Notes: generated from the sequence alone by a model not told the origin. A stretch of DNA of 64,000 nucleotides from an uncultured bacterium (GCA_963771165.1 CAVYSN010000001.1:62980-126979); one strand, 5' to 3'. Positions 1 through 60,024 are shown, counted from the first letter of the stretch. Program-made: numbers and translations.

Positions 1-364
1 TGCATTTGAACCCGTTGACAGTCCGTTTATTCCCCGTATTTTGAACGTTGAGCTGCGCGTTCTGATTCATCTGTTTTAACATGGCTCCGGCCATATTCAT
101 CATATCGAGGCTCATGACCAGTACCTGTTTTTTGTCGGGATCCACTCTGTAGACTTTCTTTGTTCCAAGATCGAGGATCTGGTATTGCGCTACATTTTGA
201 TGTTCGATCCGTGCCTTGTTTCCTTTGATCTTCATGGTCTGGATTGTGTTCACACCGGGCTGGCCCATCATGGCACTGGTCTCCACTTTTTGAAGGATCG
301 TTGTATCAGCACTGCAAAGATTTGTTACGCCAACGATTGCCAGAATGACTAGAAAATGTCTCAT
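1..364 (-). CDS. Secreted hypothetical protein (DUF4412-like), 3' partial at window edge
   Basis: Minus-strand ORF starting ATG 364-362 with an AGGAGA SD upstream. Signal-peptide-like N-terminus MRHFLVILAIVGVTNLCSA. Its ATG overlaps the TGA stop of the upstream kinase gene (ATGA). Not in the ORF track because it runs off the window. Confidence 0.55.
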   Translation of the reverse strand, partial: MRHFLVILAIVGVTNLCSADTTILQKVETSAMMGQPGVNTIQTMKIKGNKARIEHQNVAQYQILDLGTKKVYRVDPDKKQVLVMSLDMMNMAGAMLKQMNQNAQLNVQNTGNKRTVNGFKC

Positions 365-3300
365 ATTGGTTCTCCTGAGTTTTTTTGTGATTCGTATCCT
401 TTTTTAAGATCTTCCATAACGTCCTTCAATGTAGAATAGCGTTGATTTCGGTCCTTTTCCAATGTCTTTAAGATAATTTTGTGCAGCCAATCGGGAATGT
501 CGGGATTTAGTTTGAGCAGATCAGGCGGCGGCTGGCTCAAATGTTTCAAAACGATTGTTCGCGGATCTTCTCCGGTGAAAGGCTCTTCTCCAGTGAACAT
601 GTAAAACATCAAAACACCGATAGCATATTGATCCGACCGCACGTCAAGGTCCTTTCCTTGAATTTGTTCAGGGGACATATACTTGGGCGATCCCATGACC
701 TGGCCGCTGGTTACATCCACATTGTCCATGGATCGAGCAATTCCAAAATCCAGAACGTGTGGGTTCATAGATTTGTCCATCAAAACGTTCTGCGGTTTCA
801 AATCGCGATGGATGATTCCCTGGGCATGAGCTGCCTGAACTCCCTGCATCATTTTAACAGTCACGGCCAGCAAGGTCTTAAAATCGGGTTTCGCTCTTCT
901 GATCCAGTCATCCAGACTATGTCCTTCGATGTATTCCATGGAGATGTAGCGATTGCCTTTGTATTTACCTGTGTCGAAGACTTTGACAACATAAGGATGC
1001 GCAATACTGCGCGTGACTTTGATTTCACGAAGGAAACGTTTTTGAATCACAGGGTCTGTGCTGATTTCCGCACGCAAAACTTTGAGCGCAACGATTTCAT
1101 CGAGATCACGATCTCGAGCTTTATAAACATGACCCATTCCACCAAGGCCGATTTCCTTGATGATTTCGTATCTTTGGTTGAGAATCATGCCGGCAACAAT
1201 GTCTGCTACTTCCAGCTCTTCCAAAATCTGATCCGCGCCTGCATAGCGACGTTTCGGATCTTTGTGTAAACACTTCTGCATGATTTTTAACAGGAATACA
1301 GGGACCGGAAGGGGATAAGTATCCGGAAAAGCTGGAACCTGTTTGAGATGCTGCAGTTCAACGTCCTGGCCGCTAAAAGGCGTTTTTGCGTACAGCATTT
1401 CATAAAGCACAATTCCAAGCGAATAAATGTCCGTGCGCGCATCCACCTTTTGGCCCAGAATCCGTTCAGGACTGGCGTATTGTTTGGACACCAGGGTGCT
1501 TCCTTTTTCCCATTTCGCATCGATTCCAAAATTCGCAATCTTAATATGATTGCCGGTCGCGCAGTAAATGTTTTCCGGACAAAGATTTTTATGAACCACT
1601 TTTTTCTTGTGAGCAAAGGATAATCCAAGGCAAAGCTGTGAAACCATCTCGCATACTTCCGATACTTCCAGTGGTCCGTGCGCGAGCCGCTGTCGCAATG
1701 TTGGTCCTTCCACGAATTCCATGCAGACGAAATAGTAATCTTCATCCTTTCCGCTGTCGTAGATCGTTAATATGTTGCTGTGGATCAGACCGGACACGAT
1801 GCGAGTTTGCTCCAGAATGTTGCGGGTGATGTTCTTGTCCTGCTCCGGAAAACGCCGGATCAGCACCGGGCGCGCCAGCACAGTGTCCTGCGCTTTGTAA
1901 AGCGTACCAAAGGGGTCTTTTCCCAGCTTTTCCAGCAGCTCGTAGCGGGATGCGAGAATCCTTTTGAGCCCCGTGGGTGTAAAATCCGGGCTTCCCTGGA
2001 CACCATCTAATAAATTCGAAGACTTGATGCGCTGAAGCCTTTTTAACGCATCACTGTAATCGAGATCCACGGAGACGATCTTTTCGTAAATTTCACTCGA
2101 TTTCGAATACTGTGCCCCTTTCTCATAAGCCAACGCCAGACCGTAATAGGTCTGAATGTTGTTTTTGGACAGAGGCTGGTCCCGGATGGCTTCTTTAAAT
2201 TTTTCCTGTGCCACCGAGATACATTTCCATTTGAGTGAAAAGCTGTCCAAGCATGAGACAGGCCTCCGGGTAGTCGTCATCTTCCGATTGGACCTGTTGG
2301 AGAATGGATATGGCCGGCTGGATACTCTTTCTATCGATCAGGAGTTTTGCTGCGCGGATGCTTTTATGGGAGCGGACCAGACATTCTATGGCTTGTTCTA
2401 CCATATCCGCCTGTTCAAAGTAATGTGCCGCCTGTTCGAAGTTTTTTGCTCTGTCAAATAACTCCGCAGCTTTTTTGTAATCCTGCTGCTTGAGAGAAAG
2501 TTCAGCGGCCTTAGGATAGTCTTCCAGCGCCTCATAATAATCCGTAGCGCGTCGATAGTCCTTGAGCCCTTTCAAATGCTTCTGCCGCTCTTGCTCTGCG
2601 TCCAATTTGCAAATAGAGTTCGCCCGCTTCATGAAACTTACCCTGTTGGAAACAGATGTCTGCCAGGAGTTCCTTATTTTCCAGCTCGTCACCCAACCGG
2701 GAAAGGAGCTGGTATGCGGATTCATACTCGTGGATTCGATAATAAAGTTCTGCGGCTTTTTCATACTGATTCGAGAGGGAATAACATTCCGCTGCCTTTG
2801 TATAGTTTTCGGTAAGCTCAAAAGCCTCAGCAGCCCGTTCGTATTTCTTAAAGCGAAGATATAGAGTTCCCGCCGCTTGACCGACTTTGATCATTCTTGT
2901 TCGGTGACTTTGAATGAACCCCTTCTCTTCCCGTTCGCTATAGAGTTGTTTGAAGCGCCGGAAGTATACATCTGCAGCGCGTTCGTATTTTTGCGCTTGA
3001 ACATACAGATAAGCGGCGCGATCCAGAAGCTCAGCTTTTTCGGCAAGAAAAGCGGCACGGGGAATGTCACCGGCCTTTTCGGCCATTTCGGAAGCCCGCA
3101 TGACGTCGCCATTCTTTTCAAACATCGCCGAGGCTGTCCGGTAATCCTTTCAATCTGCCGCTGTAAATTTCGGCGGCATCGGAAATTTTTCCGGCCTGGA
3201 CATAATATTTTGCAGCTTCTTTCCAGTCGCCGCTCTTTTCCAGCATGCGGGCTGCAGAGTGTATAGTGGCCGCCTTTGAGATACATCTGCATTGCGTTCT

Positions 3301-3391
3301 TTTCATCTCCGGCCAGATAGTAAAAATCGCCGGCTTTTGAGTAATCCTCTTGACGTTTCGCCTTCCTGGCTTCTCTTAAGTAATCGGACAT
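361..3391 (-). CDS. TPR-repeat / pseudokinase / Ser-Thr protein kinase multidomain protein, split over at least 5 reading frames (likely assembly indels)
   Basis: ORF pieces 2891..3391, 3118..3306, 2532..3125, 2195..2821 and 361..2280 are collinear on the minus strand. The N-terminal pieces carry TPR/Sel1-like repeats. The middle kinase-like domain lacks the catalytic Lys (VLIRRF), has HKN for HRD and NFG for DFG. The C-terminal domain is canonical (GLGGMG, ALK, HRDLKPQN, DFG, SPE). Confidence 0.75.
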
Positions 3392-3556: not shown

Positions 3557-5000
3557 CTAGAACCCGTATTCTTTCCACCGTTTGGTGACAAGCGCTTTAA
3601 CTTCCGGACTCATGACAATTTCATCCGGCCACGGGCGAGTGAATCCTTCTTCTTTCCACTTTCGTGTTGCATCCACTCCCATGTGCGAGCCGTAACCCAT
3701 CAGGCGAGACGAGTGATCCAGAACATCGACAGGCCCCATCACGAATTCGATGTCACGTTCCGGATCAATGTGATTCAATGCTTTCCACGCGACTTCACTG
3801 ATATTCTGAACATCCACATCGTCATCTACGACAACAATGACTTTTGTAAACATCGCCTGGCCCAATCCCCAGATCCCGTGCATGATCTTTCGCGCATGTC
3901 CGGCGTAGCGTTTCTTGATGCTGACAAGCATCAGGTTGTGAAACATTCCTTCAAAAGGCATGTGCATGTCAACGATTTCCGGGAATTGTTTCCGGATGAC
4001 AGGCAGAAATAGTCGCTCCACGGCCTGTCCCATGTAATCGTCTTCCTGCGGCGGCGGTCCGACAATGATGGTTTGGTAAATCGGATTCTTTCGATGGGTA
4101 ATGCAAGTCAAATGAAATGCGGGATACAGATCTTCTAATGAGTAATAACCCGTGTGATCGCCGAAAGGTCCTTCGATTTTCAGTTCTTCCGCCGGGTCCA
4201 CATAACCTTCCAGAACAATTTCAGCATGGGCCGGCACTTCCAGATCCACCGTTTCGCAACGAACCATCTCGACTGATTTTTCCCGTAACAGATCCGGCGA
4301 AGAGCATTTCGTAGATGTTGTCCGGCAGCGGTGCGATGGCGCTAAACGTAAGGACCGGGTCGCAGCCGATTGCTATTGCCACTTCCATCCGCTTTTTCTC
4401 GGCAAGATATTGTTGATGATGCGCTGCGCCATGTTTGTGCAGCTGCCAGTGCATCAAAAGAGTGCGATCATCGATCACCTGCAAGTCGATAGCATCCGCA
4501 ATTGTGTTTGCCCGTTTCGCTGATCAACGGTAAATACGAGCGGTAGGGTAATGTATCGTCCGCCATCCCTGGGCCAGCATTTTAAAACAGGCAAAGATTT
4601 CAGCGAAGGGCTTCTCTTTTACAATGACTTCTTTGCATGGACCCGACTTCACGCTCTTAGGCGCCATTTGTGCGATTTCGGTGAGTCGTGGAATCAGCTT
4701 GAGCTTATCCATAAAATTGGCTGGTTTTTCGAGGAGCTCAAAATACTTTTCAAAAAATGTTTCGTACGAATCGAGCCCCAATGCTGCCAGCATTCGTTTT
4801 TTGCTTCCCAGTGCATTGATCAGAACGGGAATGTCGTAACCCCTGGGATTTTCAAATAGAAGCGCCGGACCATTCTGTTTGGAAATACGATCGGTGATTT
4901 CAGCGATTTCCAGTTCCACGTCGACCGGGGCTTGTATCCGCTTTAGCTCCCCCATCTGATCGAGCGTTTGTACGAATTCACGGAGATCTTTATATGCCAT
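3557..5000 (-). CDS. ubiD: UbiD-family decarboxylase (3-octaprenyl-4-hydroxybenzoate carboxy-lyase-like), split in 3 frames
   Basis: Pieces 4524..5000 (N-term MAYKDLREFVQTLDQMGELKRI), 4221..4484 and 3557..4267 (C-term) are collinear and match the UbiD family end to end. Confidence 0.75.
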
Positions 5001-5008
5001 GGATCATC

Positions 5009-6556
5009 TCACACGAGTAGTGGCAGAGCATTTGCCCCGCTGTTGTGTCTGAACGTGCTGGCGTTCAGGGCGTGCCTTGCCCACCGAGGGTGATGTTCTT
5101 TTGCAAATGCTCTGCAAGTTTGATGAAATTTTGCAGAGCATTTCCTCGGAGGAGCATGTTCATACAAAGACAAAATCACCAATTCAAAAGTCTTGTTTTC
5201 GGAATTACACAGGAATTGCTCTGCCACTACAAGCCTTCGAACTCTTACCCGTTGACGTTCTGGATTCTTCTCAACTTTCCGACTGCGTTTGTTGCCGCTC
5301 TCGCAATTTCCACTTCCTTGATCTCTTAAATAAGGCTCAAGATAGGTGATCGCAACCGGCTGATGCATATTACCAAGCAAATCAATTAACTGAATCTTAA
5401 ATTTTTTATCTGCACCTTTTAAGTAAGCTGCAACTCCGGGTACGGCGCGAGGTCCTAATTCTACCAGATAGCTTTCGGCCTGACTTTCGAATTCCGGATC
5501 TTTTAAATTCAGAACAACGGTATCGATGTACGCAGATTCTCCCAAAGCGTACAGGCTAAAGCTGAGCGCTGTCTTAACCGCCGGCTCTTTTCCCGTTGAA
5601 AGTGAAGCTGCAGTCTCTGAACGTGCTGAGTCAGATTCATACGTCCGATTCCTTCAATCGCCGAAATTTGCAAAGCCTTATCTTCGGAATCCAAATACTT
5701 TACCATCCAGGATTCGTATGCTGGATCCGCGATTCTGCTGATTGCGTGAAAAGCAGCACGTCTGTAATCGTCATCATCGGAATATTCAAACAGTTTTTGC
5801 AATTCCGGCAAGGCTTCTCGATAACGAAGCTGTCCCAGAACGCGCGCGGTGTCTGTTACAACATCTTCATTCGAATGCTTTAGCATAGGAACTAAGATAA
5901 GGTCCGGCGGCAGGATCTCCAATGTAGCCAAGCGATCGTACGGTGGTCCGTACCATTTTCGTATTGGGTGACCTCAAGTAGAATGCAAGTCTTGGCAGCG
6001 AGGATCTTGCGCGCAGCAGACCGAGTACGGCAGCCGCTTCGATTCGATTGTCTGATCACTTTCTGATCCAGCACGAAAAGTGATGGAATCCACCGCTTGC
6101 TGATCCACTCTCAACCATGGTTCCACAATCGTGACTTCCGGCGGATCAAAAAGCGCCGAAATCGATGCCATTAACTTTTTTAACTTTCCATGTTCGTGAC
6201 TTGGAATGTAGACCTCGGTTAACAACGACATCGCCTTTTCCTGGGCTTCGCCTTGCGTATTTCGCACGGCCCGGCTGAGATAAGCGACCTGTTGCGGATG
6301 ATGAATTTTACCGAGAGCTTCCACCACGGCCAGCTGAACTTTTGGATCTTTATCGAGCGTTGCTTCGTCTAAAGCTTCGAGTCGCCAGCTTTTCACCGCG
6401 ATCCCCAACTTCTTTTGCAGCTTCGACAGTGCACTTTCGGATCTGTGTTTTTCAGATTCTGAATCAGCTCATCTGTCGAGAGCTTCTCAGCCGCAAAAGA
6501 TGGGAGCGTAAACGCTAAAGACAATAGTACCAGTGTGATCTTATCTAACCTCATCT
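5009..6556 (-). CDS. HEAT/PBS-lyase-like repeat protein with signal peptide, split in several frames; the 3' end reads through repeat R1
   Basis: Pieces 5974..6408, 5509..5931 and 5009..5545 carry HEAT-like repeats (VAYLSRAV, ARVLGQL, LLGNMHQ). The N-terminus MRLDKITLVLLSLAFTLPSFAAEK starts at 6556 in another frame. The C-terminal ~80 codons are translation of the MITE-like element. Confidence 0.55.
5015..5233. repeat. MITE-like element R1 with terminal inverted repeats GAGTAGTGGCAGAGCATTT / AAATTGCTCTGCCACTACAAG and two internal GCAGAGCATTT boxes
   Basis: Box 1 at 5021 (direct), box 2 at 5107 (inverted, AAATGCTCTGC), box 3 at 5137 (direct), box 4 at 5214 (inverted). The same architecture recurs at 51419..51635 and 53919..54310. 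Confidence 0.7.
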
Positions 6557-12603: not shown

Positions 12604-12630
12604 GGAGAGCACTATACTACGCTTTGTAAC

Positions 12631-12740
12631 GTCCGCGAGACTGTCCCAAAAATGAGTTGGAGCGCGGACTTCCAGTCCGCAAAAACAGGTAATTTCGACG
12701 AGTCTTTGCCGGCAAGGTTGTGCCCGCGCTCCCACTAGAT
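12631..12740. repeat. ~105-nt structured intergenic repeat, copy A (second copy at 21713..21818)
   Basis: Near-identical core AGTTGGAGCGCGGACTTCCAGTCCGCAAAAAC ... GACGAGTCT ... GCGCTCCCACTA. It contains the hairpin GCGGAC-TTCCA-GTCCGC and a long-range stem GGAGCGCGG/CCGCGCTCC. Sits in the divergent region between the TMTC-like gene and suhB. Confidence 0.7.
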
Positions 12741-21690: not shown

Positions 21691-21712
21691 TTTCGCAGTT
21701 GACCTATTAACG

Positions 21713-21818
21713 CCCGCGAGATCCTCCCAAAAGTTAGTTGGAGCGCGGACTTCCAGTCCGCAAAAACTGTTAAGCTCCACGAGTCTATTGCGGGCCAAAG
21801 ATGTCTGCGCTCCCACTA
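21713..21818. repeat. ~105-nt structured intergenic repeat, copy B (trpG-trpD spacer)
   Basis: Aligns with copy A at 12631..12740. Fills nearly the whole 125-nt trpG-trpD spacer. A C to T change in the 3' arm keeps the long-range stem as a G-U pair when read as the plus-strand RNA. Confidence 0.7.
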
Positions 21819-30897: not shown

Positions 30898-32985
30898 TCA
30901 GGCGATTTTTTCTTGTGGGGCGGACATTTTAGCCGAGACGGCTTCAAGATCCGCGTACAATTCAGAAATTTTCTGATATCGCTTATCCGGATTCTTTGCC
31001 ATTGCGCGGATGAGAACTTCTTCCAACTCCTTCAGAAGGGTTGGATTGATGCTTGTCGGTTTAGGAACCGCCTCCCGGATATGTTTATTCAACACAGCAA
31101 GCGACGAATCTGCTATAAAGGGAAGTCTTCCGGTAAACACTTCAAACAACACGACACCGGCCGAATAGATGTCTGTCCGATGATCCACTCCGAGCCCCTG
31201 TGCCTGTTCGGGTGACATATAGTCGGGTGTTCCCATAATGGTTCCGGCTGAAGTCATTCCTTTCATATCCGCAACGCGCGCAATCCCGAAATCCATGATT
31301 TTCACATCGCCGGTGCTTTCCAGAAGTATGTTCTGGGGCTTCATGTCGCGATGGACAACCCCTTTTTCATGCGCTGCATCGAGAGCGCTGCAAATCTGTT
31401 TGCCGATTTGCAGCCCGATCCGGACCGGCAGCATCCCGCGTTGCCGTATGAGATGCTTCAATGTAATACCTCTTACATATTCCATACTAATAACATAGTA
31501 GTTATCCAGCTCGCTGTAATCGTACGTCCGCACGACATTGCGATGCGTTATTCTGCGAGCAAGCTTCAGCTCCTGTTTGAAGCGATCGAGAGCTACGGGA
31601 TCCTGTTGAAATACTTCGCTTTTTAGAAGCTTCAGGGCGACAACTTCATCCAGCTGTCTATCCAACGCCTTGAACACGACTCCCATGCCTCCCGCTCCCA
31701 GGATCGACTGCACCTGGTAGCGACCGGCGATAATAGAACCTGGCCCGATGGACTCCAGAGAAACGGAGGACTGGGTCCCGGAAGTCTGCGGCGATGGCGA
31801 AATGAAACCAGTGGGCGCATTGGCCGAGAAAGTGACTGTGGGTTGCTGCGAAAGGTATTCCACCAGCTGCTGTTTCTCCTTCAATTGTGACAGGAGCTTT
31901 TTGAACGATTGGGCCAGTATCCCAACTTCGTCGCGAGAGGTTGTCTCAATCGGGACATCGAAATTGCCTTCTTTAACTTCGTTCACTGCATTGGTAAGAT
32001 CGCGCAATGGACCTGTGATCCGGCGCGATCCCAGAAAGCTAATCAGAAAAGCAAGAGCCATCATTCCGATACCAACGATCAGCACGTTCTTTTGAAACTG
32101 CCGGAACGCAAACAACTCGCGGTCCAGAGAGCGAAACGCCGCAAATCTACCGAGCGTTTGCCCATCCAGATTTTTCAACAGTCTGTAAACTCCAACATAC
32201 TTCTCGTTGCCGATCTGAAACTCGAACGGCACATCCGGTGTGCTTGCGGCGGAAACGGATTGCGTTAGGTCTTCACGTTCTTCTGTAATCGTGCTTGCAA
32301 TCAAGGAAAGCCCGTCTTTCTCAATGAAGAACGCAGCCTCTGAATGAGTGTATTCCTTGAGTTGAGTTACGAGGGCATCGTTGATCGAATATCCGACGGC
32401 GAGCGCTGCGGTGATGATATCTCCTGTAACAACCGGAAGCGCAATCGCGTGATACAGATTCTGATTTTCCAGCATCAATCCGCTGACTTCGTCTCCTTCC
32501 AGAGCGCTGGAAATCAAAGGAACATTTTCGAGACTCTGTCCGCTGACGCCCGGTTTATCCGTACGCGCAAGAATCACACCCTCCGCATCCGTGACGATTA
32601 TGAAATTGCTTTTGATGCTTTCTTCTGTGTCGCGCGCCAGATCCAGGATGCTGTTGGAATCGGCTTCCTGAATATATGCTTGAATATATGGACTTTGCGC
32701 AAAAATCTTGTTTGCAATTTTTAGCTTCTCATAGCGGTCTTTCTGAAATGTTTCAAAAACCGACAGCGTTTGTTTCAGATCTGATCGAATAGTTTCATGC
32801 GCGAGCGCCCTTGCTCTACGGGAGCTGAAAAGAATGGTTACGGCGATCAACAACACGATGATCAGAGCCGTGAAGAGGAAGAATTTCAGATTCAGGCTAA
32901 GACCGGGCTTAGTATCGTTCATTTTCGTCGTAATCTTTCCCGAATTTGTTTTTGTGCTTTGCTTTCTTGAAATTCCGTCCGTCAA
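30898..32985 (-). CDS. Receptor-type Ser/Thr protein kinase: TM, periplasmic sensor (Cache-like), HAMP, kinase
   Basis: N-terminal TM helix, ~250-aa extracytoplasmic region, second TM, HAMP-like segment (GPLRDLTNAVNEVKEGNFDVPIE), then a canonical kinase (GAGGMG, ALK, HRDMKPQN, DFG). Confidence 0.75.
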   Translation of the reverse strand: MTDGISRKQSTKTNSGKITTKMNDTKPGLSLNLKFFLFTALIIVLLIAVTILFSSRRARALAHETIRSDLKQTLSVFETFQKDRYEKLKIANKIFAQSPYIQAYIQEADSNSILDLARDTEESIKSNFIIVTDAEGVILARTDKPGVSGQSLENVPLISSALEGDEVSGLMLENQNLYHAIALPVVTGDIITAALAVGYSINDALVTQLKEYTHSEAAFFIEKDGLSLIASTITEEREDLTQSVSAASTPDVPFEFQIGNEKYVGVYRLLKNLDGQTLGRFAAFRSLDRELFAFRQFQKNVLIVGIGMMALAFLISFLGSRRITGPLRDLTNAVNEVKEGNFDVPIETTSRDEVGILAQSFKKLLSQLKEKQQLVEYLSQQPTVTFSANAPTGFISPSPQTSGTQSSVSLESIGPGSIIAGRYQVQSILGAGGMGVVFKALDRQLDEVVALKLLKSEVFQQDPVALDRFKQELKLARRITHRNVVRTYDYSELDNYYVISMEYVRGITLKHLIRQRGMLPVRIGLQIGKQICSALDAAHEKGVVHRDMKPQNILLESTGDVKIMDFGIARVADMKGMTSAGTIMGTPDYMSPEQAQGLGVDHRTDIYSAGVVLFEVFTGRLPFIADSSLAVLNKHIREAVPKPTSINPTLLKELEEVLIRAMAKNPDKRYQKISELYADLEAVSAKMSAPQEKIA

Positions 32986-33568
32986 TCGTCAAATTGACCT
33001 TCAAAGGCTTGTCACCTACCGTTACTTTTTGCATCGTTTGTCCCTCTTCCGCATACACTCGTAGCTGAAAATCTCCATTCGGGATGTTCCCCAAAGTGAA
33101 ATACCCTTCCTGGTCCGCAATCGTATAGTGCGGCGAAGAGGTAACGATGATCGTGGCGGACATTTGCGGATGTACATTGCAAAATACTTTTACGACACCT
33201 GGATGCTCAAAGGTTTGAGTCTTATTCCCTCCGCCTTTATAAAGTCCGAGATCGAACCGGTTCGGCGCCGACACAGAAAAGATGTTGTGGAATATGGAAT
33301 CGAGATTCGGAAACTGAACGGACGCTCCTACCGGAACAGCGAGAACACGCGGAGCAAATTGCTTATCCTTTGTCGCCATGGTGAATTTCTTTTTCAATGC
33401 TTCCTGGGGTATGTTCGATTGCGAAACGGCTTCCAGATACAGGATCACCGAGGAGTGGTCTGTCTTCTTTTTCTCACCTTTGAGGAGCACTTGCACCATA
33501 CCGAATACTTCGTGGGCATTCGCCTCCAGCCCGAATAGAAGAAGCATGAGTGCCGCGAAAAACCGCAT
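32909..33568 (-). CDS. Secreted cupredoxin (amicyanin-like type-1 Cu site) fused to a CarbopepD_reg-like beta-sandwich
   Basis: Signal peptide. FAPRVLAVPVGASVQFPNLDSIFHNIF ... FCNVHPQM (His, Cys-x2-His-x2-Met ligands). C-terminal GYFTLGNIPNGDFQLRVY. Overlaps the start of the downstream receptor kinase. Confidence 0.55.
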   Translation of the reverse strand: MRFFAALMLLLFGLEANAHEVFGMVQVLLKGEKKKTDHSSVILYLEAVSQSNIPQEALKKKFTMATKDKQFAPRVLAVPVGASVQFPNLDSIFHNIFSVSAPNRFDLGLYKGGGNKTQTFEHPGVVKVFCNVHPQMSATIIVTSSPHYTIADQEGYFTLGNIPNGDFQLRVYAEEGQTMQKVTVGDKPLKVNLTIDGRNFKKAKHKNKFGKDYDENERY

Positions 33569-51418: not shown

Positions 51419-51635
51419 TGCAGTGGCGAGAGCATTTTGCCGTCTAATTGAAAATGGCTGGCATCTTTCAGATGGATAACCATTTGTTATTATGAGCCTT
51501 TCCTGTAAGGCAAATGCTCTGTTTCCTGCCTCTCAGCAGAGCCTTTCCAAATGCAAAGAAATCCGGCGACAGTTGATAGGCTGTTGACGGAAAAGTTCAT
51601 ATTAAGGGGAGCGGGAAATGTTCTGCCACTGCAGC
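51419..51635. repeat. MITE-like element R3 (GCAGAGCATTT-box family)
   Basis: Left end TGCAGTGGCGAGAGCATTTTGCC, right end GAAATGTTCTGCCACTGCAG. Internal boxes GCAAATGCTCTG (inverted) and CAGCAGAGCCTTTCC (direct). Packed between two convergent genes. Confidence 0.7.
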
Positions 51636-51640
51636 CTGCA

Positions 51641-52827
51641 TTAGGAAGTAGGTTTTTCTTTGAGTTGTTTTTCGATCAGGCCTTTGTCGATCTCGCTTTT
51701 CTCATCCGGGGCTTCCACTTTCACAGTCGGAGCCTCTTCCTTCTTTAAGACCTTTTCCATAACCGGCCTGGCCTTCTCATCTTGTATCTTCTCAGCCACA
51801 ATCTCAGGGAATTTATCCGGCGCGATCCATCCCTGTTCCACGGCGTGTTTTGCCGCTGCGAGCGTATCATCGGTCAGGATCAGCGTGCTGCCTGCTTCAA
51901 TCACTTTCTTGGCAAGTTCCCGAATGGCTGCAGGCCGTTTTAAGTCACGGCTGACGTTTCTGATGTAGATCGCCAGGATTCGTTTGGGATACATAGAAAG
52001 GATTTCATGATAGATTTCAGGATCCTTTTGTCCGCTATCTCCTATCAGGATAAATGGGAGATGGCTTACGACGTCCATGATGTGGCGGATCGTTTCCAGT
52101 TTGTGGTCGCGGTGGTTGTGCGGCAATGTATCCCGCGAGCCTCCCCAATCCCGCAGGAGCAGCGGTCCAATCGGAATATTCTGCAGATAGAAAAACTCCA
52201 TCAGCAGGTCATACAAATTCCAGGGACTGCTCGATACATAATAGAGCGGGTTCGTGGGCTTTCCATTCTCCTCATGCAAAGCCTGATAAAACGCGGCGAC
52301 TCCTTTGAAGGGCATTCGCGTTCTTGCATTTCCCAAAACTATGTTTTTGAACATTCGAATCACATTCGTAGCATCCGTTTGAAGAACGGTGTCATCCATA
52401 TCACTGATGACACCAAACCTTGCATCTTCCGATGGGATCATCACGTAACCCGTTTCTTGAATCTTTCCTTGACCCGGATGCATTGGCTCCAGGAGTTCAA
52501 CGTCCACCTGGTGCCAGAGTTTGTCCTGAACAAGGGGAACGGACGGTTGCAGGGAGAAACTGAAGTAGCCTTCCGAATCGGTTATGGCTTCCTGGGTGAA
52601 GCCGTTTATGGAAGCTCGTGTCCGGGCGCCGGGGATCTCATCGCTTTCGAAACGTTTCCACGCGTTTCTAAAATTCCGCCATGCTGAGTCTGTCACCGCT
52701 GACAGGCCAACATCTTTGCTTTCCAGTACCCGGCCACGGAGATAGACGATTCGTGGATTTCCATACCCGCGATACGGAACAATTTGAATCGGACTTTTCG
52801 CGCGAAGTTTTCGGGCCCAATTGCGCG
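51641..52827 (-). CDS. App1-family (DUF2183) phosphatase; probable frameshift near the 5' end
   Basis: DDTVLQTDA ... YVSSSPWNLYDLL ... LLRDWG. The conserved N-terminus IVPYRGYGNPRIVYLRGRVLE is in frame upstream of the track start 52696, but the ATG at 52827 is in another frame. Confidence 0.6.
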
Positions 52828-52874
52828 CTTTGTTTATAGGGAGTCATGATTTTACCGTTCTACATATATTATCT

Positions 52875-53925
52875 ATGGATATGGAGCTTCCTGTTCAACC
52901 GCCCGTCCCGCCGATGCTGGCTGTCCTTTCGCGCGAGTTGCCTGAAGGCAAAGGATGGTTGTTCGAGCCGAAGTGGGATGGTTTTCGAGCGCTCGTTTTC
53001 CGGGATGGTAACGATTTAATGATCCAGAGTCGCGATTTGAAACCGCTGGACCGCTATTTTCCGGAGCTCCAGGAAGACTTGCGGAAAGTCCTTCCCCGGA
53101 AAGTTGTTCTGGATGGAGAAATTGTTATCGCCGGCCCGAACGGTCTGGATTTTGACTCATTACTGATGCGGATTCATCCCGCTGCTTCACGCATCGCGAA
53201 ACTGGCAAAGGAAACGCCCGCTTCCTTCGTTGCGTTTGATATTCTGGCGCATTCCAGCACGAATTTGATGAATGTTTCGTTGGAACAACGAAGAAAAACG
53301 CTGGAGAAAATCGGCGCAAGTCTTCCACCGCCTTTCTATTTAACTCCGGCTACAACCAGCATTGAAAACAGCAAAGGATTGGTTTATCCGCTTCGAAGGG
53401 GCCGGTTTGGATGGAGTGATCGCGAAAGAATTAGATCAGGTTTATGTGCCCGGTGAGCGGGTCATGCTCAAGGTGAAACACCAGCGCACGATCGATTGTG
53501 TTGTCGGAGGATTTCGCTGGTTCAAGGATCTGAAAGGACAGGCGATCGGTTCATTGTTGCTCGGTTTATATAAAGACAAAACTCTGCATTACGTAGGGCA
53601 TGCATCGAATTTTCAGAAAGAGGAGCGCCGCAAACTTGTAGAGTTTTTGAAACCCTACCGCGATTCTTCGGGAAAGGAAGGATTTGGAGCCGGCCGAACG
53701 CCGGGTGGAATCAGCAGATGGACAAAGAACGCCGATGTGACCTGGGAACGATTACGTCCGGAACTTGTTTGTGAGGTTGCATTTGATCATTTGCAAGGTG
53801 AACGGTTTCGTCATGCTGCATCGTTTCTTCGATGGCGACCGGATAAACCACCCATCGAATGCACCTTTGATCAGATCGACACAGCGGTCCCCTTTGAGCT
53901 GAAGCAGATCTTTGACATCGAGTAG
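52875..53925 (+). CDS. ATP-dependent DNA ligase (ligase domain only, LigC-like), frameshifted
   Basis: Motif I KWDGFR in EPKWDGFRALVF. Pieces 52821..53456 and 53362..53925 are collinear (adenylation plus OB domains). Confidence 0.75.
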
Positions 53926-54310
53926 TGGAGCCTGTCGAAAAATTCGACGAACTGTGGCAGAGCATTACAACGACTGTGCACGGGCAGCATGGACTCTACG
54001 ATGCTTAACAGTAATCAGAATTCTTGTTGTGTTGGAAATGCTCTGCATCATCCCCGAAGAAGCAGAGCATTTTCTAAAGTAAGAATGCCTATACTCAATG
54101 CTAGAGTCATACCTTCGAAAGAAAGTCCCTGGTCACGGAATGCTCGCCAGCACGGTGGAAGCAACACCTGAATGGACAAGTGTGGATTTTCTGGGAGGAA
54201 TTGCTCGGCAGAGCATTTGCTCAACTGCTGAAAGCATAGGCTAAGAACAATTCATCAGAGCGGAACTAAAGCTTAGCAAGAGTACCCGTCAAATGCTCCG
54301 CCACTACGAG
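53919..54310. repeat. MITE-like element R2, composite (about 1.5 units) of the GCAGAGCATTT-box family
   Basis: Left end CGAGTAGTGG overlaps the ligase stop codon. Boxes at 53966 (direct), 54033 (inverted), 54063 (direct), 54207 (direct, fused to an AGGAATTGCTC right-end fragment) and 54291 (inverted, AAATGCTCCGCCACTACGAG). Confidence 0.7.
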
Positions 54311-54355
54311 ACTGACGTGTTTCTGCGGTTAAACTATAATCGTGAATAATCGGCC

Positions 54356-57300
54356 ATGACTCATACGCGCAAAGACCCTCTGATTGGCAGCAGGATCCGG
54401 GAATACGAGATTCTTGAACTGCTGGGAAAAGGAGGGATGGGTTCTGTCTATCGAGCTCGCCATGCCTATCTCGAAGAAGAACGCGCAATCAAAGTCATTC
54501 ATGGCCGACATACCGGTGATAGTGGTTTCATCGAGCGCTTCATACGTGAAGCAAAGATCCTGACAAGACTGCGCCATACGAATCTGGTCCAGCTTTATGA
54601 ATTCGGGACGTTGGAAACGGATTCATTTTTCATGGTGATGGAATTGATCCGCGGAGAAAGTGTGTGGCACAGGATCCAACGAATGGGGCGAATTCCAATT
54701 CCGGATGCCGTTCGAATGATGCGTGAAGCCGCTTCCGGTCTCCAATGCGCCCATCAAAATGGAATTATTCATCGCGATATTTCGCCTGACAATCTCATTC
54801 TTCTGAACAATAGCCTCCCGGAAATCACGAAGGTCATTGATTTCGGAATTGCAAAACCTTTGCTGGACACCTCCCTGCAGCTCACGGCTTCCAATCTGTT
54901 TATAGGCAAACCGGAGTATTGCAGTCCGGAACAATGCACGTTTTCCGAAAACAGACAGCCGCTCGATGCGCGCTCCGATATTTATTCCCTGGCGGTTACG
55001 TTTTATCAGATGTTGACAGGAAATCTTCCGTTCTATTCAAAAAGTCCACAGGGTTACTTCATGAAACACGCTCACGAACTACCCGATGCTCCTTCTTCCC
55101 ATTTTGCGGCAGGAACTTTTCCGGAGCTTTTAGACAGGCTGATTTTAAAGGCGTTGTCAAAACGACGTGAAGATCGCCACGAAAACCTCGGAGAATTTTT
55201 ATCTGAGCTCGACGCATTCTCTGAACAGCGAAGCATTCCCCTTCTGTTTTCTTCCGAACCGGAGATTGGAGAAGTGTTTGCCGGACGTTACTTGATAGAA
55301 AAGAAGCTCGGCAAGGGCGAGATGGGAATGGTTTTTCAAGCGGTCGACAAGATATTGGAGATTCCAGTCGCTTTGAAAACGATCTCCTGGGACATCGCGG
55401 AAGATGAAAAGAATTTGGCGCGTTTTAAGCGGGAAGTGATCCTGGCACGCAAAGTAAGTCACGCGAACGTTTGCCGCGTGTATGACATTGGAGAAAACGC
55501 AAATGTTCATTATGTATCGATGGAACTTGTGGAAGGTAAGACGCTTGCGGATTACATGCGCGCCCAGGGGCGGCTCACGATGGAAGCAGCCATCCCGATT
55601 TTGGAACAGGTGCTATACGCGATTCGCGAGACTCATCGTGCAGGGATTATTCATCGCGATTTAAAACCGCAAAACATCATGATCGATCAACAAATGCGCT
55701 TGAAGATCATGGATTTTGGAATCTCACTCTCGCCAGATTTTTCTCGAATTACGCAAACCGGATCACTTCTTGGAACGCCGCATTACATGGCTCCCGAAGT
55801 TTTTGAGGAAAAGAAGGTGGATGAGCGCGCGGATCTTTATTCCTTTGGCGTTTTGATGTACGGCCTATTTACGGGACGCCTTCCGTTCGATGGCCCGACT
55901 CCGATCGCTGTTATCTATGCGCACCTAAAGGGAGATCCGCTCAAACCTTCAGAGATTGTTCCGTCATTTCCAGCAGGTTTGGAGCGAATCATTCTGAAAG
56001 CTCTGCAAAAAGAACCTTCGAAAAGGTATGAAAGCGCAGACAAAATCCTTCATGATCTTGCGTTGATCAGTCAACCGACTTCCGATCCGAAGTTGCATGC
56101 AGGGGAACAATTTACACATAAGTTGATTGCGGAGCACCGGTATGGAAAAGCGATCCGGGTTCTTCAGTCGTTGCTGAAAGAACACCCGGGCAACCTTCAA
56201 TGGAAAAAACTTTTAAAGAATGCGGTCGCAGAGAAAGCAAAAAGGGACATTCATCGCACACGATTTTTGATACGCAAAGGCAACTGGATGCAGGCTGAAG
56301 TGTGTCTGGACCGAATTGGAGGACCGCAGCTGGAAGTTCCAGGCGTTCTCAATCAGGTCAAGAAACTGCAGGAGCTTCTGATATCCGGGAAAAAATTCGC
56401 GGTTGAGAAGTACGTGAAGGAAGCAGAGGAGAGGCTTTTGAGAAGCGACTATCTGGCCGCGATGGCGAGTCTGGAATCTGCATGGCATTTGCAGCCAAAC
56501 GATCCTGCAATCATTCAAATGCAGGAAAAAATTCAGCTCGCACAGGAAACGGAATCCACGGAAAAATATAAAAAACAATTGAATGAAGCTCAATTGCTGT
56601 TGTCTGAAGGTCACGATGAACAAGCGTTCTCCATTGCTCAGGAAATTCTTGGCGAAAACCCTTCCCATCGATCAGCCAAGGCTCTTCATGATCAAATTCT
56701 CGATAGCCGTTGGGAGAAAGTTCAGGAGCCCATCAAGCAAGGCCTCGAACTTGCCGTTCAACCCCTCTCTTTTTGTGATTTTGAAGTTGCGCTGGATCTG
56801 TTAATGAAATTGCAAAGCGATCTTGAGATAGAGTCCTGCCGAAAGGAAATTGACAGGATCCGGAAAGCCGTCACATCGCTCGACTCGGCTTTTCAAGCGG
56901 AGCAGTACTACGACGTTCCGCACGTGGTGAAAAAATTGCTCGCAAAGGATCCCTTTCGCTGGTTGGAACCGCATCGTTCTGTTTTTACCGAAATTGAAAG
57001 CGCTGCTGCGGAAAGACTAACCCAGCGTCAAAAGACAGTTCAGGAAGCGCTATCCGAAAGCCGAACCCTCTTGAACGCAGAACGTTACTTAGAAGCACTG
57101 GCTAGAGTAGAAGAAGTATTGACAAGCTGGTCCGTGCCGGAAGCGGAAGAATTGAGATCTAGGATCCTTCATGCCTATCGAGAATCGAAACAGCGAGAGG
57201 CGCAAGAATTCGCCGTGCAACTGGAATGGGAGCAAGCGATATCATGCTGGAAGGAGATCCTTGTTTTTTTTCCGGAAGCAGCCGAAATCAAGCAGTCTGT

Positions 57301-58894
57301 GTCACAAGCCGAATCTCATGTGCGAACGGAACTTGGCGCTCAACAAGAACTTCTTCGTAATCTGAAAAATTGCTATTCCTTAATTCTAAAAGAGCACTGG
57401 GCGGAGGCGCAGGATCTTGTCGAAAGCATGTTGAAATCGATTCAGCCGGGATTCCGGCTCATTGAAATGGAGAAGCAGATAGAGGCGCTCCAGACTGAAA
57501 TCCTTCTTTATAACAGACAGCAGCAAAAGCATCTGGAATCTGTTTCGCTTGAATTATCGGAGATTCGAAAACTGTACAGACGCGGACTATACGCAGAGGC
57601 CCTGGAAAAAATTTCCTTGATACTCGAGTTGGATATTGTGCAGGAAGAGGCTTTGGAATTGAAGATTTCCATTGAAAAAGCCATTCAGGTCCAGTCTGTG
57701 TCGTTGAGGTTCCAATCGGCAGTGCAAAAAGGGAAGGAGTACTACGAGCGCCGGAACTGGCAGAAGGCGATTGAGTTCTGGAAGAAGGCGAGTTCACTTT
57801 CGGATGAGACCTACGTGAAGGATTGGATCGATCAGGCCGAGCAACTTTTGAAAAAGGAACGGCAGACTCGCTTATCAATCATTGCAATGCTTGCCGAAGC
57901 GGAAGAATTAATCTTTTACAACAAATTTGTAGAAGCTGGCCGGAAAATCGACAAATGCAGAAAAGCTCTCTCAAACGAGTTTTCCCTGGAAGATCTTTCC
58001 GAACAAGTACGAAAGTTATCAGCCAGACTGGAGACTGAAATACAAAAAGAGGAGGCCTTTCGTTACAGTCTGCAAGCAGAACTGGAAGAAGCGGCGCTTC
58101 TGTATCATCAAAAGCTTTATCCGCAAGCGCTGCTGAAACTGGATGCGATCCTGCAACAACAGCCTGAAATGGAGACTGCCATGCAGTTAAAATCTTCGAT
58201 TGAAGCGGCCGAAGGGGAGGAACGGAACGTGTTGGAGATCATTCGAGCCGTTGTAAAACTCGTTGTGAAAAAGGACTTCAAGCACCTTCCGGGTTTGTTG
58301 TTGAAGCTCAAGGAAACATCGATCCGAACACCTTATGCCGAAGATTGTTCAAGCATTATTGATGAAATGCCTTTACTGGTTCTGGAAATCGAATCGGGTG
58401 ATCAGGTTGCTGTGCAAGGACGGTTGGATCGTTTGTTTTCGCGATCTTTGCTCTTGCTCGAGTATGAACAGACGCTAAGGACTTTTGTAGAAGCACTGGA
58501 ATCGAGGAATCAGAAGGAACATGATCTGCAAAAGACGCTTTCGGAAGGACTCGAGTTATTGGAAGCAGGGGATCGTAAAGGAGCGCTCCAGTGTTTGGAG
58601 AGATTTCATCTGATCCTTGGAGGTAAACAGCAGAAAAAAAAATCTCAACCCGCGGAACATTTAGACCGGACAGCAACGTTATCTGACGACGATCTGAAAC
58701 TTTCCGAATTCGAATTGCAGACTCTACAACATTCGTTGTTGCATCATGAAGTTGAATCGATCCTTTCAACTGCTCATAACATCCTGATCGCCGGTGACAA
58801 AGCGCGAGCAGAGGAGCTATTCTTGCAAGTTCTTGAAATCGAACCGGACAACCAGGGAGCGCTCGAAGGATTGCGCCAAGTAAAACAGGATTGA
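54356..58894 (+). CDS. Giant tandem dual Ser/Thr kinase with ~900-aa C-terminal TPR/coiled-coil array (1512 aa)
   Basis: Kinase 1 has GKGGMG, AIK, HRDISPDN, DFG. Kinase 2 has GKGEMG, ALK, HRDLKPQN, DFG. Both carry a full catalytic residue set. The rest is helical repeats. Confidence 0.85.
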   Translation: MTHTRKDPLIGSRIREYEILELLGKGGMGSVYRARHAYLEEERAIKVIHGRHTGDSGFIERFIREAKILTRLRHTNLVQLYEFGTLETDSFFMVMELIRGESVWHRIQRMGRIPIPDAVRMMREAASGLQCAHQNGIIHRDISPDNLILLNNSLPEITKVIDFGIAKPLLDTSLQLTASNLFIGKPEYCSPEQCTFSENRQPLDARSDIYSLAVTFYQMLTGNLPFYSKSPQGYFMKHAHELPDAPSSHFAAGTFPELLDRLILKALSKRREDRHENLGEFLSELDAFSEQRSIPLLFSSEPEIGEVFAGRYLIEKKLGKGEMGMVFQAVDKILEIPVALKTISWDIAEDEKNLARFKREVILARKVSHANVCRVYDIGENANVHYVSMELVEGKTLADYMRAQGRLTMEAAIPILEQVLYAIRETHRAGIIHRDLKPQNIMIDQQMRLKIMDFGISLSPDFSRITQTGSLLGTPHYMAPEVFEEKKVDERADLYSFGVLMYGLFTGRLPFDGPTPIAVIYAHLKGDPLKPSEIVPSFPAGLERIILKALQKEPSKRYESADKILHDLALISQPTSDPKLHAGEQFTHKLIAEHRYGKAIRVLQSLLKEHPGNLQWKKLLKNAVAEKAKRDIHRTRFLIRKGNWMQAEVCLDRIGGPQLEVPGVLNQVKKLQELLISGKKFAVEKYVKEAEERLLRSDYLAAMASLESAWHLQPNDPAIIQMQEKIQLAQETESTEKYKKQLNEAQLLLSEGHDEQAFSIAQEILGENPSHRSAKALHDQILDSRWEKVQEPIKQGLELAVQPLSFCDFEVALDLLMKLQSDLEIESCRKEIDRIRKAVTSLDSAFQAEQYYDVPHVVKKLLAKDPFRWLEPHRSVFTEIESAAAERLTQRQKTVQEALSESRTLLNAERYLEALARVEEVLTSWSVPEAEELRSRILHAYRESKQREAQEFAVQLEWEQAISCWKEILVFFPEAAEIKQSVSQAESHVRTELGAQQELLRNLKNCYSLILKEHWAEAQDLVESMLKSIQPGFRLIEMEKQIEALQTEILLYNRQQQKHLESVSLELSEIRKLYRRGLYAEALEKISLILELDIVQEEALELKISIEKAIQVQSVSLRFQSAVQKGKEYYERRNWQKAIEFWKKASSLSDETYVKDWIDQAEQLLKKERQTRLSIIAMLAEAEELIFYNKFVEAGRKIDKCRKALSNEFSLEDLSEQVRKLSARLETEIQKEEAFRYSLQAELEEAALLYHQKLYPQALLKLDAILQQQPEMETAMQLKSSIEAAEGEERNVLEIIRAVVKLVVKKDFKHLPGLLLKLKETSIRTPYAEDCSSIIDEMPLLVLEIESGDQVAVQGRLDRLFSRSLLLLEYEQTLRTFVEALESRNQKEHDLQKTLSEGLELLEAGDRKGALQCLERFHLILGGKQQKKKSQPAEHLDRTATLSDDDLKLSEFELQTLQHSLLHHEVESILSTAHNILIAGDKARAEELFLQVLEIEPDNQGALEGLRQVKQD

Positions 58895-58960: not shown

Positions 58961-59095
58961 GGAGAAATCGATGATAGATCGTGCTGTTGAAGAGGTTCAA
59001 AAGGCCGGAGGAATGATCATCGAAAGAGGAGAATTTTCTCCGGATTTTCCCAACGCCTTTGTAGGCGACCAGGACGGATACATAATCGAAATTTG
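58961..59095 (+). pseudogene. 3' remnant of a glyoxalase/VOC-family gene (44 codons)
   Basis: MIDRAVEEVQKAGGMIIERGEFSPDFPNAFVGDQDGYIIEIWYE resembles only the C-terminal beta-strands of a VOC domain. No room for the N-terminal half after the kinase stop. Confidence 0.35.
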
Positions 59096-59162
59096 GTATG
59101 AGTAAAGTATTGACTCTGAATAAAACCAGTACTATTTTTCTTCAGGAATAGCCGAGGAGTAT

Positions 59163-59924
59163 ATGTTAAGAACCTTTCTGATTGTCTGTTTCAGTGTGTG
59201 TAGTGTGCTGGCTGCTGACACCGTTAAGGTTCAGCCCGAGTTCGAATATCCTATTATTGATCCGAATTCCACCTACAGTTGGGAAAGCGTGCGCAGTGAA
59301 TGCCTTCCCCCGACTGAGAAGGATCCTGCAGAGCGTTGCACAATCAAGAAGCTCGGCGATTTGGGGCAAGTGGATAATAAGAATTTTTATTTCACTTTAT
59401 ACGAGTGGCTGGATAAGAGTGAAGTCGAAGAGCATGAAAAATCGGACCCGCCGGCAAAATATCCTCGCACGAACACAGCAATCGTGCTGTTTTATTCCAC
59501 TAAAGAGTCTCCAAATATGCTGCGACCGTTTTATGCGGATCGAACGGACCTGAATGTGGGTTGGTTTGAAGAACCGCGAATCATCAGAGGCGCGCAGGGC
59601 GTTCTTCTGCAAATTCCGCATCGCGGACCGAAAACGGCGAACACGGAAGTCGACAGCATTTTGAGCTGGCAGGCTTCAGAGTGGCGAATAATAGATACTC
59701 AATCCTGGGTTGATGATTTGCAAAATCGTTTGCCGGAGGGATGCTCTGTGATTCGTGAGACTCTCGTGAACTTTGAAAGCATGAAAGCGAGCAACTATCT
59801 TTGGAAGGCTTCCGATTCGAACTGCTGTCCGACTTGCGGCCGTTTTTCAGCGACTCTGGCTCTGCAGGAAGATCGTTTGGTGATTAAAAATCTGCAACAC
59901 AACCTGAAAGCTCGTTTGAAGTAG
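59163..59924 (+). CDS. Secreted hypothetical protein
   Basis: GAGGAG SD. Signal peptide MLRTFLIVCFSVCSVLAADT. Cys-rich C-terminus. Confidence 0.5.
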   Translation: MLRTFLIVCFSVCSVLAADTVKVQPEFEYPIIDPNSTYSWESVRSECLPPTEKDPAERCTIKKLGDLGQVDNKNFYFTLYEWLDKSEVEEHEKSDPPAKYPRTNTAIVLFYSTKESPNMLRPFYADRTDLNVGWFEEPRIIRGAQGVLLQIPHRGPKTANTEVDSILSWQASEWRIIDTQSWVDDLQNRLPEGCSVIRETLVNFESMKASNYLWKASDSNCCPTCGRFSATLALQEDRLVIKNLQHNLKARLK

Positions 59925-60024
59925 TTGTTGCCCTGATGTAGGGGCGCGATTTATCTCATCCGGATCATCCTCCTACATAAGTTATCGGTGCATCGGAAGG
60001 TTGCCCCTCTTCGAACAAATCGGA

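Follow-up and report, generated by a model that had tools for sequence, protein, structure and literature searches.

The best solved relatives of both kinase domains of the protein described here are the bacterial PASTA kinases, namely PknB of Mycobacterium tuberculosis, Stk1/PknB of Staphylococcus aureus and StkP of Streptococcus pneumoniae. M. tuberculosis also encodes PknG, a soluble Hanks-type kinase followed by a tetratricopeptide repeat (TPR) domain, an order of parts that recalls the present protein with its TPR-like tail. TPR domains are named first among those most commonly tethered to prokaryotic kinases (PMC2877116). The gene considered here lies in a stretch of 64,000 nucleotides from an uncultured bacterium (GCA_963771165.1, CAVYSN010000001.1:62980-126979; this whole stretch is called the window below), where it occupies positions 54356-58894 of the plus strand and encodes a protein of 1512 amino acids (aa) with two kinase domains, K1 and K2, followed by a long helical tail. 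On balance we read the product as a soluble, cytoplasmic, PknB-like Ser/Thr kinase of a vertically inherited Acidobacteriota family that is built around the K1-K2 tandem, an assignment that seems fairly probable. The part likely to interest kinase specialists is the active-site signature of K1, in which the catalytic-loop lysine is replaced and a lysine is found in the P+1 loop; the rest of the finding is largely ordinary.

Two kinase domains with different active sites

The gene is complete, with an uninterrupted translation from an ATG start to a stop codon that is included in its coordinates, and the public databases already contain an identical protein (P0001, encoded on a 159.7-kb NCBI/ENA contig). 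Pfam model PF00069 (Pkinase) matches the product in two stretches (329 bits against a cut-off of 31.7; E, 2e-98), and the domain boundaries were set with a profile built from both domains. K1 spans residues 10-292 (54383-55231) and K2 residues 305-574 (55268-56077), both being PknB-like, and the linker between them (residues 293-304; 55232-55267) is predicted to be flexible, with predicted local distance difference test (pLDDT) values below 50 at residues 292-298. An earlier note on this DNA, made from the sequence alone, had proposed an intact open reading frame (ORF) of 1512 aa with two kinase domains, and the mapping agrees with it. The same note found it remarkable that the gene should be intact in an error-prone assembly, but about 12 probable frameshifts were counted by eye in the ORF list of the 64 kb, a frequency that gives a 4.5-kb gene a chance of ~0.4 of having none.

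The Gly-loop (GxGxxG), β3 Lys, HRD and DFG motifs that the note had assigned to both domains were recovered in a column-by-column comparison, and the αC Glu, the catalytic-loop Asn, SPE/APE, the αF Asp and the αH-I Arg are likewise present in each. Pseudokinases are usually told from active kinases by three residues, the β3 Lys, the HRD Asp and the DFG Asp (PMC13519141), and all three are found in K1 (K46, D141 and D162) and in K2 (K341, D435 and D453). With its HRDLKPQN, DFG and GTPHYMAPE motifs and a TQT activation loop, K2 reads as a canonical, textbook PknB-like RD kinase. K1 departs from it at two positions: its catalytic loop is HRDISPDN rather than HRDLKPQN, with Ser143 in place of Lys, and its P+1 loop is GKPEY rather than GTPHY, with Lys185 in place of Thr. 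Thus K2 has both the canonical catalytic-loop Lys and the P+1 Ser/Thr (K437 and T474) and K1 has neither; at the D+4 position K1 has Asp145, and its activation-loop Thr177 is present. The description of the pair as 'active+active' stands as far as the canonical motifs are concerned, and for K1 it needs the caveat of the missing catalytic-loop Lys.

The best solved relative of K1, M. tuberculosis PknB (E, 1.4e-44), aligns with it without a gap across both swapped positions, S143 lying opposite K140 and K185 opposite T179. In PKA, Thr201 hydrogen-bonds to both Asp166 and Lys168. Since the conserved P+1 Ser/Thr of bacterial Hanks kinases interacts with the catalytic loop (reviewed in PMC6213207), the two swapped positions are expected to be neighbours in space.

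The replacement of Lys by Ser in the catalytic loop together with that of Thr by Lys in the P+1 loop makes a sharply defined variant, conserved in more than 100 sampled domains. The first sample comprised 232 kinase domains; its sources were the 120 relatives that scored best in the database and the other tandem-kinase gene of the window (361-3391, described below). Lys at D+2 was combined with Thr at P+1 in 116 of them, and Ser, Ala or Cys at D+2 with Lys or Arg at P+1 in 98; D+4 is Asp in 95 of these 98 and variable (Gln, Asp, Glu, Ser and others) elsewhere. A further 243 domains came from searching 1.84 billion representative proteins exhaustively, and even when the signature columns were masked 117 of the 118 Ser/Lys domains fell into a single clade. 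K1 belongs with them to an old kinase lineage of its own, in which the catalytic-loop, D+4 and P+1 positions have changed jointly. The first domain of P0227 (917 aa, from an ENA contig) carries the swap as HRDVSPPN...GKVSY, yet groups among ordinary Lys/Thr kinases, and may represent an independent second origin. K1-type domains also occur alone: in 19 of the 232 domains first sampled the K1-type domain is the sole kinase domain of its protein, and the wider search added more. Among such single-kinase proteins, P0100-P0113 combine a transmembrane segment with PDZ domains, and the same helical tail recurs in P0088, P0090 and P0092. Filtering for tandem proteins whose first domain has Ser, Ala or Cys at D+2 left 89 (the window's other tandem-kinase gene included), with both domains intact in 76, only K2 in eight, only K1 in five, and both lost in none.

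Across the K1 clade all the remaining catalytic residues are conserved, and K1 is probably competent for catalysis. That it is active by virtue of a relocated lysine is quite possible, and we would put the chance at somewhat below even. A fuller proposal, in which K1-type domains would make up an undescribed active class of bacterial Hanks kinases, with the lysine relocated to the P+1 loop, an Asp that co-evolved with it at D+4 and a two-step relay with K2 on a TPR-like scaffold, is speculative and as a whole rather unlikely. In our main reading both domains would bind ATP and transfer phosphate, and Lys185 would supply from the P+1 loop the positive charge that normally comes from the catalytic-loop Lys; alternatively, it might pair with Asp145 and so hold the two loops together. 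By analogy with PknB dimers or RSK, K1 and K2 would activate each other through activation-loop phosphorylation, and the tail would recruit partners or substrates, or drive oligomerisation, replacing an extracellular signal. Our literature searches, whose coverage was incomplete, found no account of the HRDxSPDN motif or of the K1-K2 family, and nothing of relevance on tandem kinases in bacteria.

Residues R10, L33 and D76 of PknB form the N-lobe back-to-back dimer interface that activates this kinase. PDB entries 3ORI-3ORT and 3ORM deal with the PknB mutants L33D and D76A. The K2 counterparts of the three residues are R311, L334 and D377, and among the K2 domains of the family (n=81) Arg/Lys, Leu and Asp occupy these positions in 81, 76 and 79 cases respectively. 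At the corresponding positions K1 shares the Leu and also has an acidic residue, but Arg-Glu replaces the Asp-Arg of PknB. These residues fit an N-lobe pairing of kinase domains, without proving that pairing occurs. In Foldseek comparisons of the kinase domains with PknB, PknA and Stk1, the template modelling score (TM-score) normalised to the target was 0.8-0.92. An AlphaFold model of K1-K2 gave both domains with confidence (mean pLDDT 83.4) and a floppy linker, and a Foldseek search with this model found no PDB entry that matched K1 and K2 together.

Several observations weigh against a catalytically active K1 that works in concert with K2. The AlphaFold model contained no confident K1:K2 interface (predicted TM-score, pTM, 0.47), which leaves intramolecular cross-activation unsupported. 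The residue replaced in K1, the catalytic-loop Lys, normally contacts the γ-phosphate. The co-variation of Ser and Lys comes down to a single evolutionary event and one further, independent case, and is statistically weak. K1 has decayed to an obvious pseudokinase in eight lineages, which shows that its catalysis can be dispensed with in some contexts. Finally, no conserved partner, either an FHA protein or a PP2C phosphatase, was found beside this orthologue group, in the window or at the syntenic loci.

The main rival explanation, which we regard as possible but doubtful, makes K1 an ATP-binding, catalytically feeble regulatory domain that steers K2 allosterically, much as in the JH2-JH1 pair of JAK, with phosphorylation carried out by K2 only. 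It draws on the absence of the catalytic-loop Lys from all 98 K1-clade members, on the degeneration of K1 to HQN, HHN or GFS forms in the eight tandem lineages, where K2 is intact, and on the other tandem kinase of the window, which is already of the pseudo+active kind; RIO and Bud32 kinases, which have no catalytic-loop Lys (HxDLSxxN) and are mainly ATPases, also count in its favour. The three-residue definition does not make K1 a pseudokinase, however, and throughout the K1 clade the Gly-loop, the αC Glu, the catalytic-loop Asn, DFG, the activation-loop Thr and SPE are retained. Moreover, the K1-type domain is the only kinase domain of many proteins and the only intact one in five tandem lineages.

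The helical tail, the family and the origin of the tandem

The tail (residues 578-1512, ~935 aa; 56087-58891) is predicted to be an all-helical, TPR-like repeat. An AlphaFold run on residues 571-1512, made with a 28-sequence alignment, gave 36 helices and no strands; the mean pLDDT was 82.7 but the pTM 0.35, so that confidence extends to the local structure but not to the overall shape. A long helix of 27-40 aa followed by one of 14 aa occurs 14 times, with a period of ~55-60 aa and not 34. A Lys/Gln-rich segment (residues 1424-1449; 58625-58702) is predicted to be disordered (pLDDT <50) and is followed by the three last helices. The best Foldseek matches of the tail in the PDB are long TPR scaffolds, among them IFT-A, CTR9, SKI3, Naa15, P58IPK, OGT and APC/C subunits, with E-values of 1e-7 to 1e-4 and TM-scores of only 0.06-0.10. 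Fis1_TPR_C is the sole Pfam TPR model above its cut-off (residues 595-632; 30.8 against 25.3), other TPR models falling below theirs, and precomputed TPR matches are more numerous in the orthologues than in the 1512-aa protein itself. A self dot-plot of the tail, whose composition is rich in Leu, Glu, Ala, Lys and Gln, revealed an internal duplication of ~176 aa, with a first copy at residues 938-1107 (57167-57676) and a second at residues 1115-1283 (57698-58204); at an offset of 176-177 the best 30-residue score was 58, whereas 20 shuffles gave 42 at most. The '900-aa TPR array' of the earlier note is thus right as to a long helical repeat whose structural matches are TPR scaffolds, but only one Pfam TPR model passes its cut-off and the period is ~55 aa, and the structural model favours the description of a TPR-like helical repeat scaffold, for which 'canonical TPR array' would be inaccurate.

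A database search returned 7917 related proteins at E≤1e-5. Apart from the identical P0001 there are six full-length orthologues, with 60-74 % identity, lengths of 1507-1519 aa and the same start and end, and ~30 longer relatives (36-47 % identity) that have the head and a large part of the tail in common with it; the K1-K2 head alone is common to dozens of proteins of ~900 residues. The named members of the family come, without exception, from metagenome-assembled genomes (MAGs) of Acidobacteriota, and the window would accordingly stem from a soil bacterium of this phylum. A scan of species-representative genomes with peptide patterns that were over-specific gave one close relative (L005, 74 %, also an Acidobacteriota MAG) and otherwise generic kinases from many phyla. 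Three paralogues (P0017, P0020 and P0036) lie together on one 592-kb contig. The hallmarks of the family, which are a K1-type HRDxSPDN...GKPEY domain, a short linker, a canonical K2 and the 'LIAExxYxKAIK' helical module, are all found in the 1512-aa protein.

In most relatives a single transmembrane helix lies close to the C-terminus and a small PEGA-like ectodomain comes after it, which would make them receptor kinases whose cytoplasmic stalk is very long. P0001-P0007 end directly after the last repeat and have neither a hydrophobic segment nor an ectodomain, and the hydropathy maximum of the 1512-aa protein, 1.29, falls in a segment that contains charged residues. We infer that this orthologue group is a stable soluble derivative. 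Proteins with several kinase domains are not rare among bacteria, and tandem Hanks kinases are common in metagenomes: among the top matches of the exhaustive search, the ranking of which favours multi-domain proteins, 104 of 116 new representatives carry two to four kinase domains. Four giant proteins (P0066, P0084, P0086 and P0152; 2457-7165 aa) have four to six kinase-domain stretches each; one of the four comes from a Planctomycetales genome, and several of the kinase domains of P0066 and P0086 are degenerate.

The gene is an ordinary member of a large, conserved and uncharacterised Acidobacteriota family, with an active-site variant that is possibly new. The earlier note had allowed that its case would fall if the protein proved to belong to a common, conserved family with a known role; such a family does exist in relatives, and no known role goes with it. 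What had looked like an odd two-kinase protein is one of many of its kind, and a special, acquired locus is no longer suggested.

A separate phylogeny of each kinase domain had been proposed as a check on internal duplication. K1 and K2 are 31.6 % identical, and either of them is 31-34 % identical to unrelated bacterial kinases. In a neighbour-joining tree the K1-type clade (102 domains, those of single-kinase proteins included) was recovered in 100 of 100 bootstraps and the K2 clade in 68, and the two were sister groups in none of the 100; the domains were sampled by similarity to the query, and a maximum-likelihood tree with a broader sample would be firmer. Because the identity is at the level of unrelated kinases and the two are never sisters, there is no sign of a recent internal duplication. 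The tandem would have arisen by an old fusion of two lineages, or by a duplication too old to detect.

The locus and the other kinase genes of the window

Orthologues of the gene are found in three syntenic contigs, L001 (71 % identity), L060 (71 %) and L061 (65 %). The shared gene order upstream comprises an amine oxidase, a 500-aa protein (minus strand), an ArsR-type helix-turn-helix protein, AHSA1, an APP1 phosphatase (minus strand) and an ATP-dependent DNA ligase before the kinase; downstream, the kinase is followed by a 253-aa protein and, further on, by a 482-aa membrane protein (minus strand) and a 323-aa protein. The ligase (52821-53925, plus strand; Pfam DNA_ligase_A_M and DNA_ligase_A_C) lies in two reading frames in the window, 52821-53456 and 53362-53925, whereas in all three contigs an intact ligase gene (335-349 aa) immediately precedes the orthologue; the split is either an assembly indel or the mark of a pseudogene. 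The 253-aa protein (59163-59924, plus strand) has a hydrophobic N-terminus and no Pfam match, and is 72 % identical to its L001 counterpart; in L060 and L061 a 254-aa gene occupies this place. Between the 482-aa membrane protein and its syntenic counterpart the identity is 66 %. Between the kinase and the 253-aa protein is a 5′-truncated glyoxalase/VOC gene (58971-59105, plus strand) of which the last 43 codons and the stop are left, a remnant that the earlier note had correctly recognised: L060 has an intact 121-aa glyoxalase in this position, and the remnant matches residues 79-121 of it with 60 % identity. By comparison with L060 (14859-17772), ~3 kb with M48 peptidase, MerB and DinB genes, which in relatives separates the 253-aa gene from that of the 482-aa membrane protein, is missing from the window at 59925-60024. 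Also missing is a cytochrome c gene, which comes after the kinase in L060 and L003.

The spacer between ligase and kinase (53926-54355) is 430 bp long, against 51-160 bp in L060, L001 and L061, and contains five copies of GCAGAGCATTT and a sigma70-like site. This 11-nt sequence occurs 13 times in the window, where 1.8 copies are expected and none of 100 shuffles reached 13, and its copies lie in three intergenic clusters (4299-5224, 51512-51626 and 53957-54301). They are often arranged as inverted pairs ~15 nt apart, resembling the hairpins of repetitive extragenic palindromes, and the spacer holds one such pair, at 54036/54062. The element that had been called similar to a miniature inverted-repeat transposable element (MITE) does therefore contain repeats, in the form of the five-copy cluster, but its MITE nature could not be shown: when repeats of at least 40 nt were sought, no MITE-like family reached into the spacer, in which only the 11-nt sequence is repeated. 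The sigma70-like site, CTGACG-17-TATAAT at 54312-54340, ends 16 nt before the ATG and is a consensus match only. Elsewhere in the window an 86-nt direct repeat (84 % identity) occurs at 12627-12712 and 21708-21793, 9 kb apart, and contains a GCGGACT-TCC-AGTCCGC hairpin.

These features bear on whether the locus is rearranged or acquired, as the earlier note had hinted, or whether the two-kinase architecture is an artefact of an indel that fused adjacent kinase genes. Both the ligase and the kinase gene at 361-3391 are split by frameshifts, there are repeats upstream and a gene remnant downstream, and the tetranucleotide distance of the gene is on the high side, second among 40 segments. That shift in composition fits the Leu/Glu/Ala/Lys/Gln-rich tail, however, and the gene is typical in its GC content, at 0.473 compared with 0.482 in the window as a whole. 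The same architecture of 1507-1519 aa, start and stop included, recurs in six orthologues that come from independent samples, the K1-K2 head is common to ~89 tandem proteins, and gene order is conserved on both sides in the three related contigs. An artefact or a recent acquisition is thus barely credible. Synteny and GC content argue that the locus was inherited vertically, with local erosion by small deletions downstream, and was not acquired; horizontal transfer was rejected on the same grounds.

A place in an anti-phage system of the PD-T4-6, MADS or BREX PglW-like type might be suggested by PADLOC matches to the PD-T4-6 and mad6 models, with E-values down to 1e-164, and by NCBIfam matches to MAD6 and PglW. 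All of these cover the kinase domains only and would be given by any Hanks kinase, and the NCBIfam cut-offs are not reached (322 against 460 bits for MAD6, 173 against 990 for PglW). The neighbours in conserved synteny are housekeeping genes, and no methyltransferase, helicase, nuclease or defence partner lies within 8 kb or at the syntenic loci. A defence role was rejected for these reasons, and we consider it highly improbable.

Possible partners are seen next to some relatives. A gene for an FHA-sigma54 activator adjoins a 60 % orthologue (L003, 6417-7802) and a membrane-bound relative (L063, 11920-13287), and a ~425-aa TPR protein is encoded directly after two membrane-bound relatives (L062, 11132-12406; L063, 10482-11771); neither is among the window ORFs that were scanned.

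The window holds three kinase genes with five kinase domains in all. The second tandem-kinase gene (361-3391, minus strand) is split over four overlapping ORFs, by frameshifts or sequencing errors, and encodes in order an N-terminal IFT/clathrin-type TPR region, a pseudokinase and a canonical kinase. With HKN, NFG and a β3 Arg the first of its kinase domains is a clear pseudokinase, and both domains fall outside the K1 and K2 clades in the neighbour-joining tree; the claim that the window contains two different tandem-kinase architectures, one of them pseudo+active, is borne out. The third Hanks-type gene (30898-32985, minus strand) encodes a receptor kinase with dCache_3, HAMP and Pkinase domains. 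An ORF that overlaps it upstream in another frame (32909-33568, minus strand) has cupredoxin and CarboxypepD_reg matches, all below the Pfam cut-offs.

Comparison with known kinase systems

Like PknB, K2 has an HRDxKPxN catalytic loop, a DFGI motif, a TQT activation loop and counterparts of R10, L33 and D76; unlike PknB, K1 has neither the catalytic-loop Lys nor the P+1 Thr. The protein as a whole differs from the PASTA kinases in having two kinase domains, no PASTA domain, no transmembrane helix and a 935-aa cytoplasmic helical tail. The NCBIfam model for Stk1/PknB PASTA kinases (NF033483) reaches 586 against 450 bits only by summing the two kinase domains, and the architecture that it describes is not present: of the 563 profile positions the best stretch spans 1-282, and no PASTA match was found. 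PknG differs in its single kinase domain, N-terminal rubredoxin-like domain and short TPR domain, and we saw no specific sequence relationship between it and the 1512-aa protein.

Within the family, the K1-K2 receptor kinases of Acidobacteriota (P0011 and P0014-P0017, for example) are 45-59 % identical in the head and share the LIAExxYxKAIK module, the first of the tail, and the TPR-like repeats, but have the transmembrane helix and PEGA-like ectodomain that P0001-P0007 are without. Acidobacteriota rank with the most abundant bacteria of soil, and their sets of Ser/Thr kinases are large and almost unstudied.

Among eukaryotic proteins with two kinase-fold domains, namely RSK/MSK (active+active), JAK and GCN2 (pseudo+active) and the plant tandem kinase proteins, one domain regulates or activates the other. 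These are of independent origin, K1 and K2 both being PknB-like bacterial kinases. There is precedent for the displacement of a basic residue: in WNK the β3 Lys has moved to the Gly-loop, and in tyrosine kinases (HRDLAARN) an Arg at D+4 replaces the Lys at D+2. K1 resembles both in that a normally invariant basic residue is missing and a basic residue is present at a nearby position. It differs from them in that the putative replacement takes the place of the conserved Thr in the P+1 loop, and in that D+4 is Asp and not Arg. If the K1 variant is active, it would represent a new way for the kinase fold to position its catalytic charges, and the sequence rules by which active kinases are told from dead ones would be refined; phospho-acceptor or substrate specificity could also change, and the displaced lysine would be a bacterial counterpart of that of WNK.

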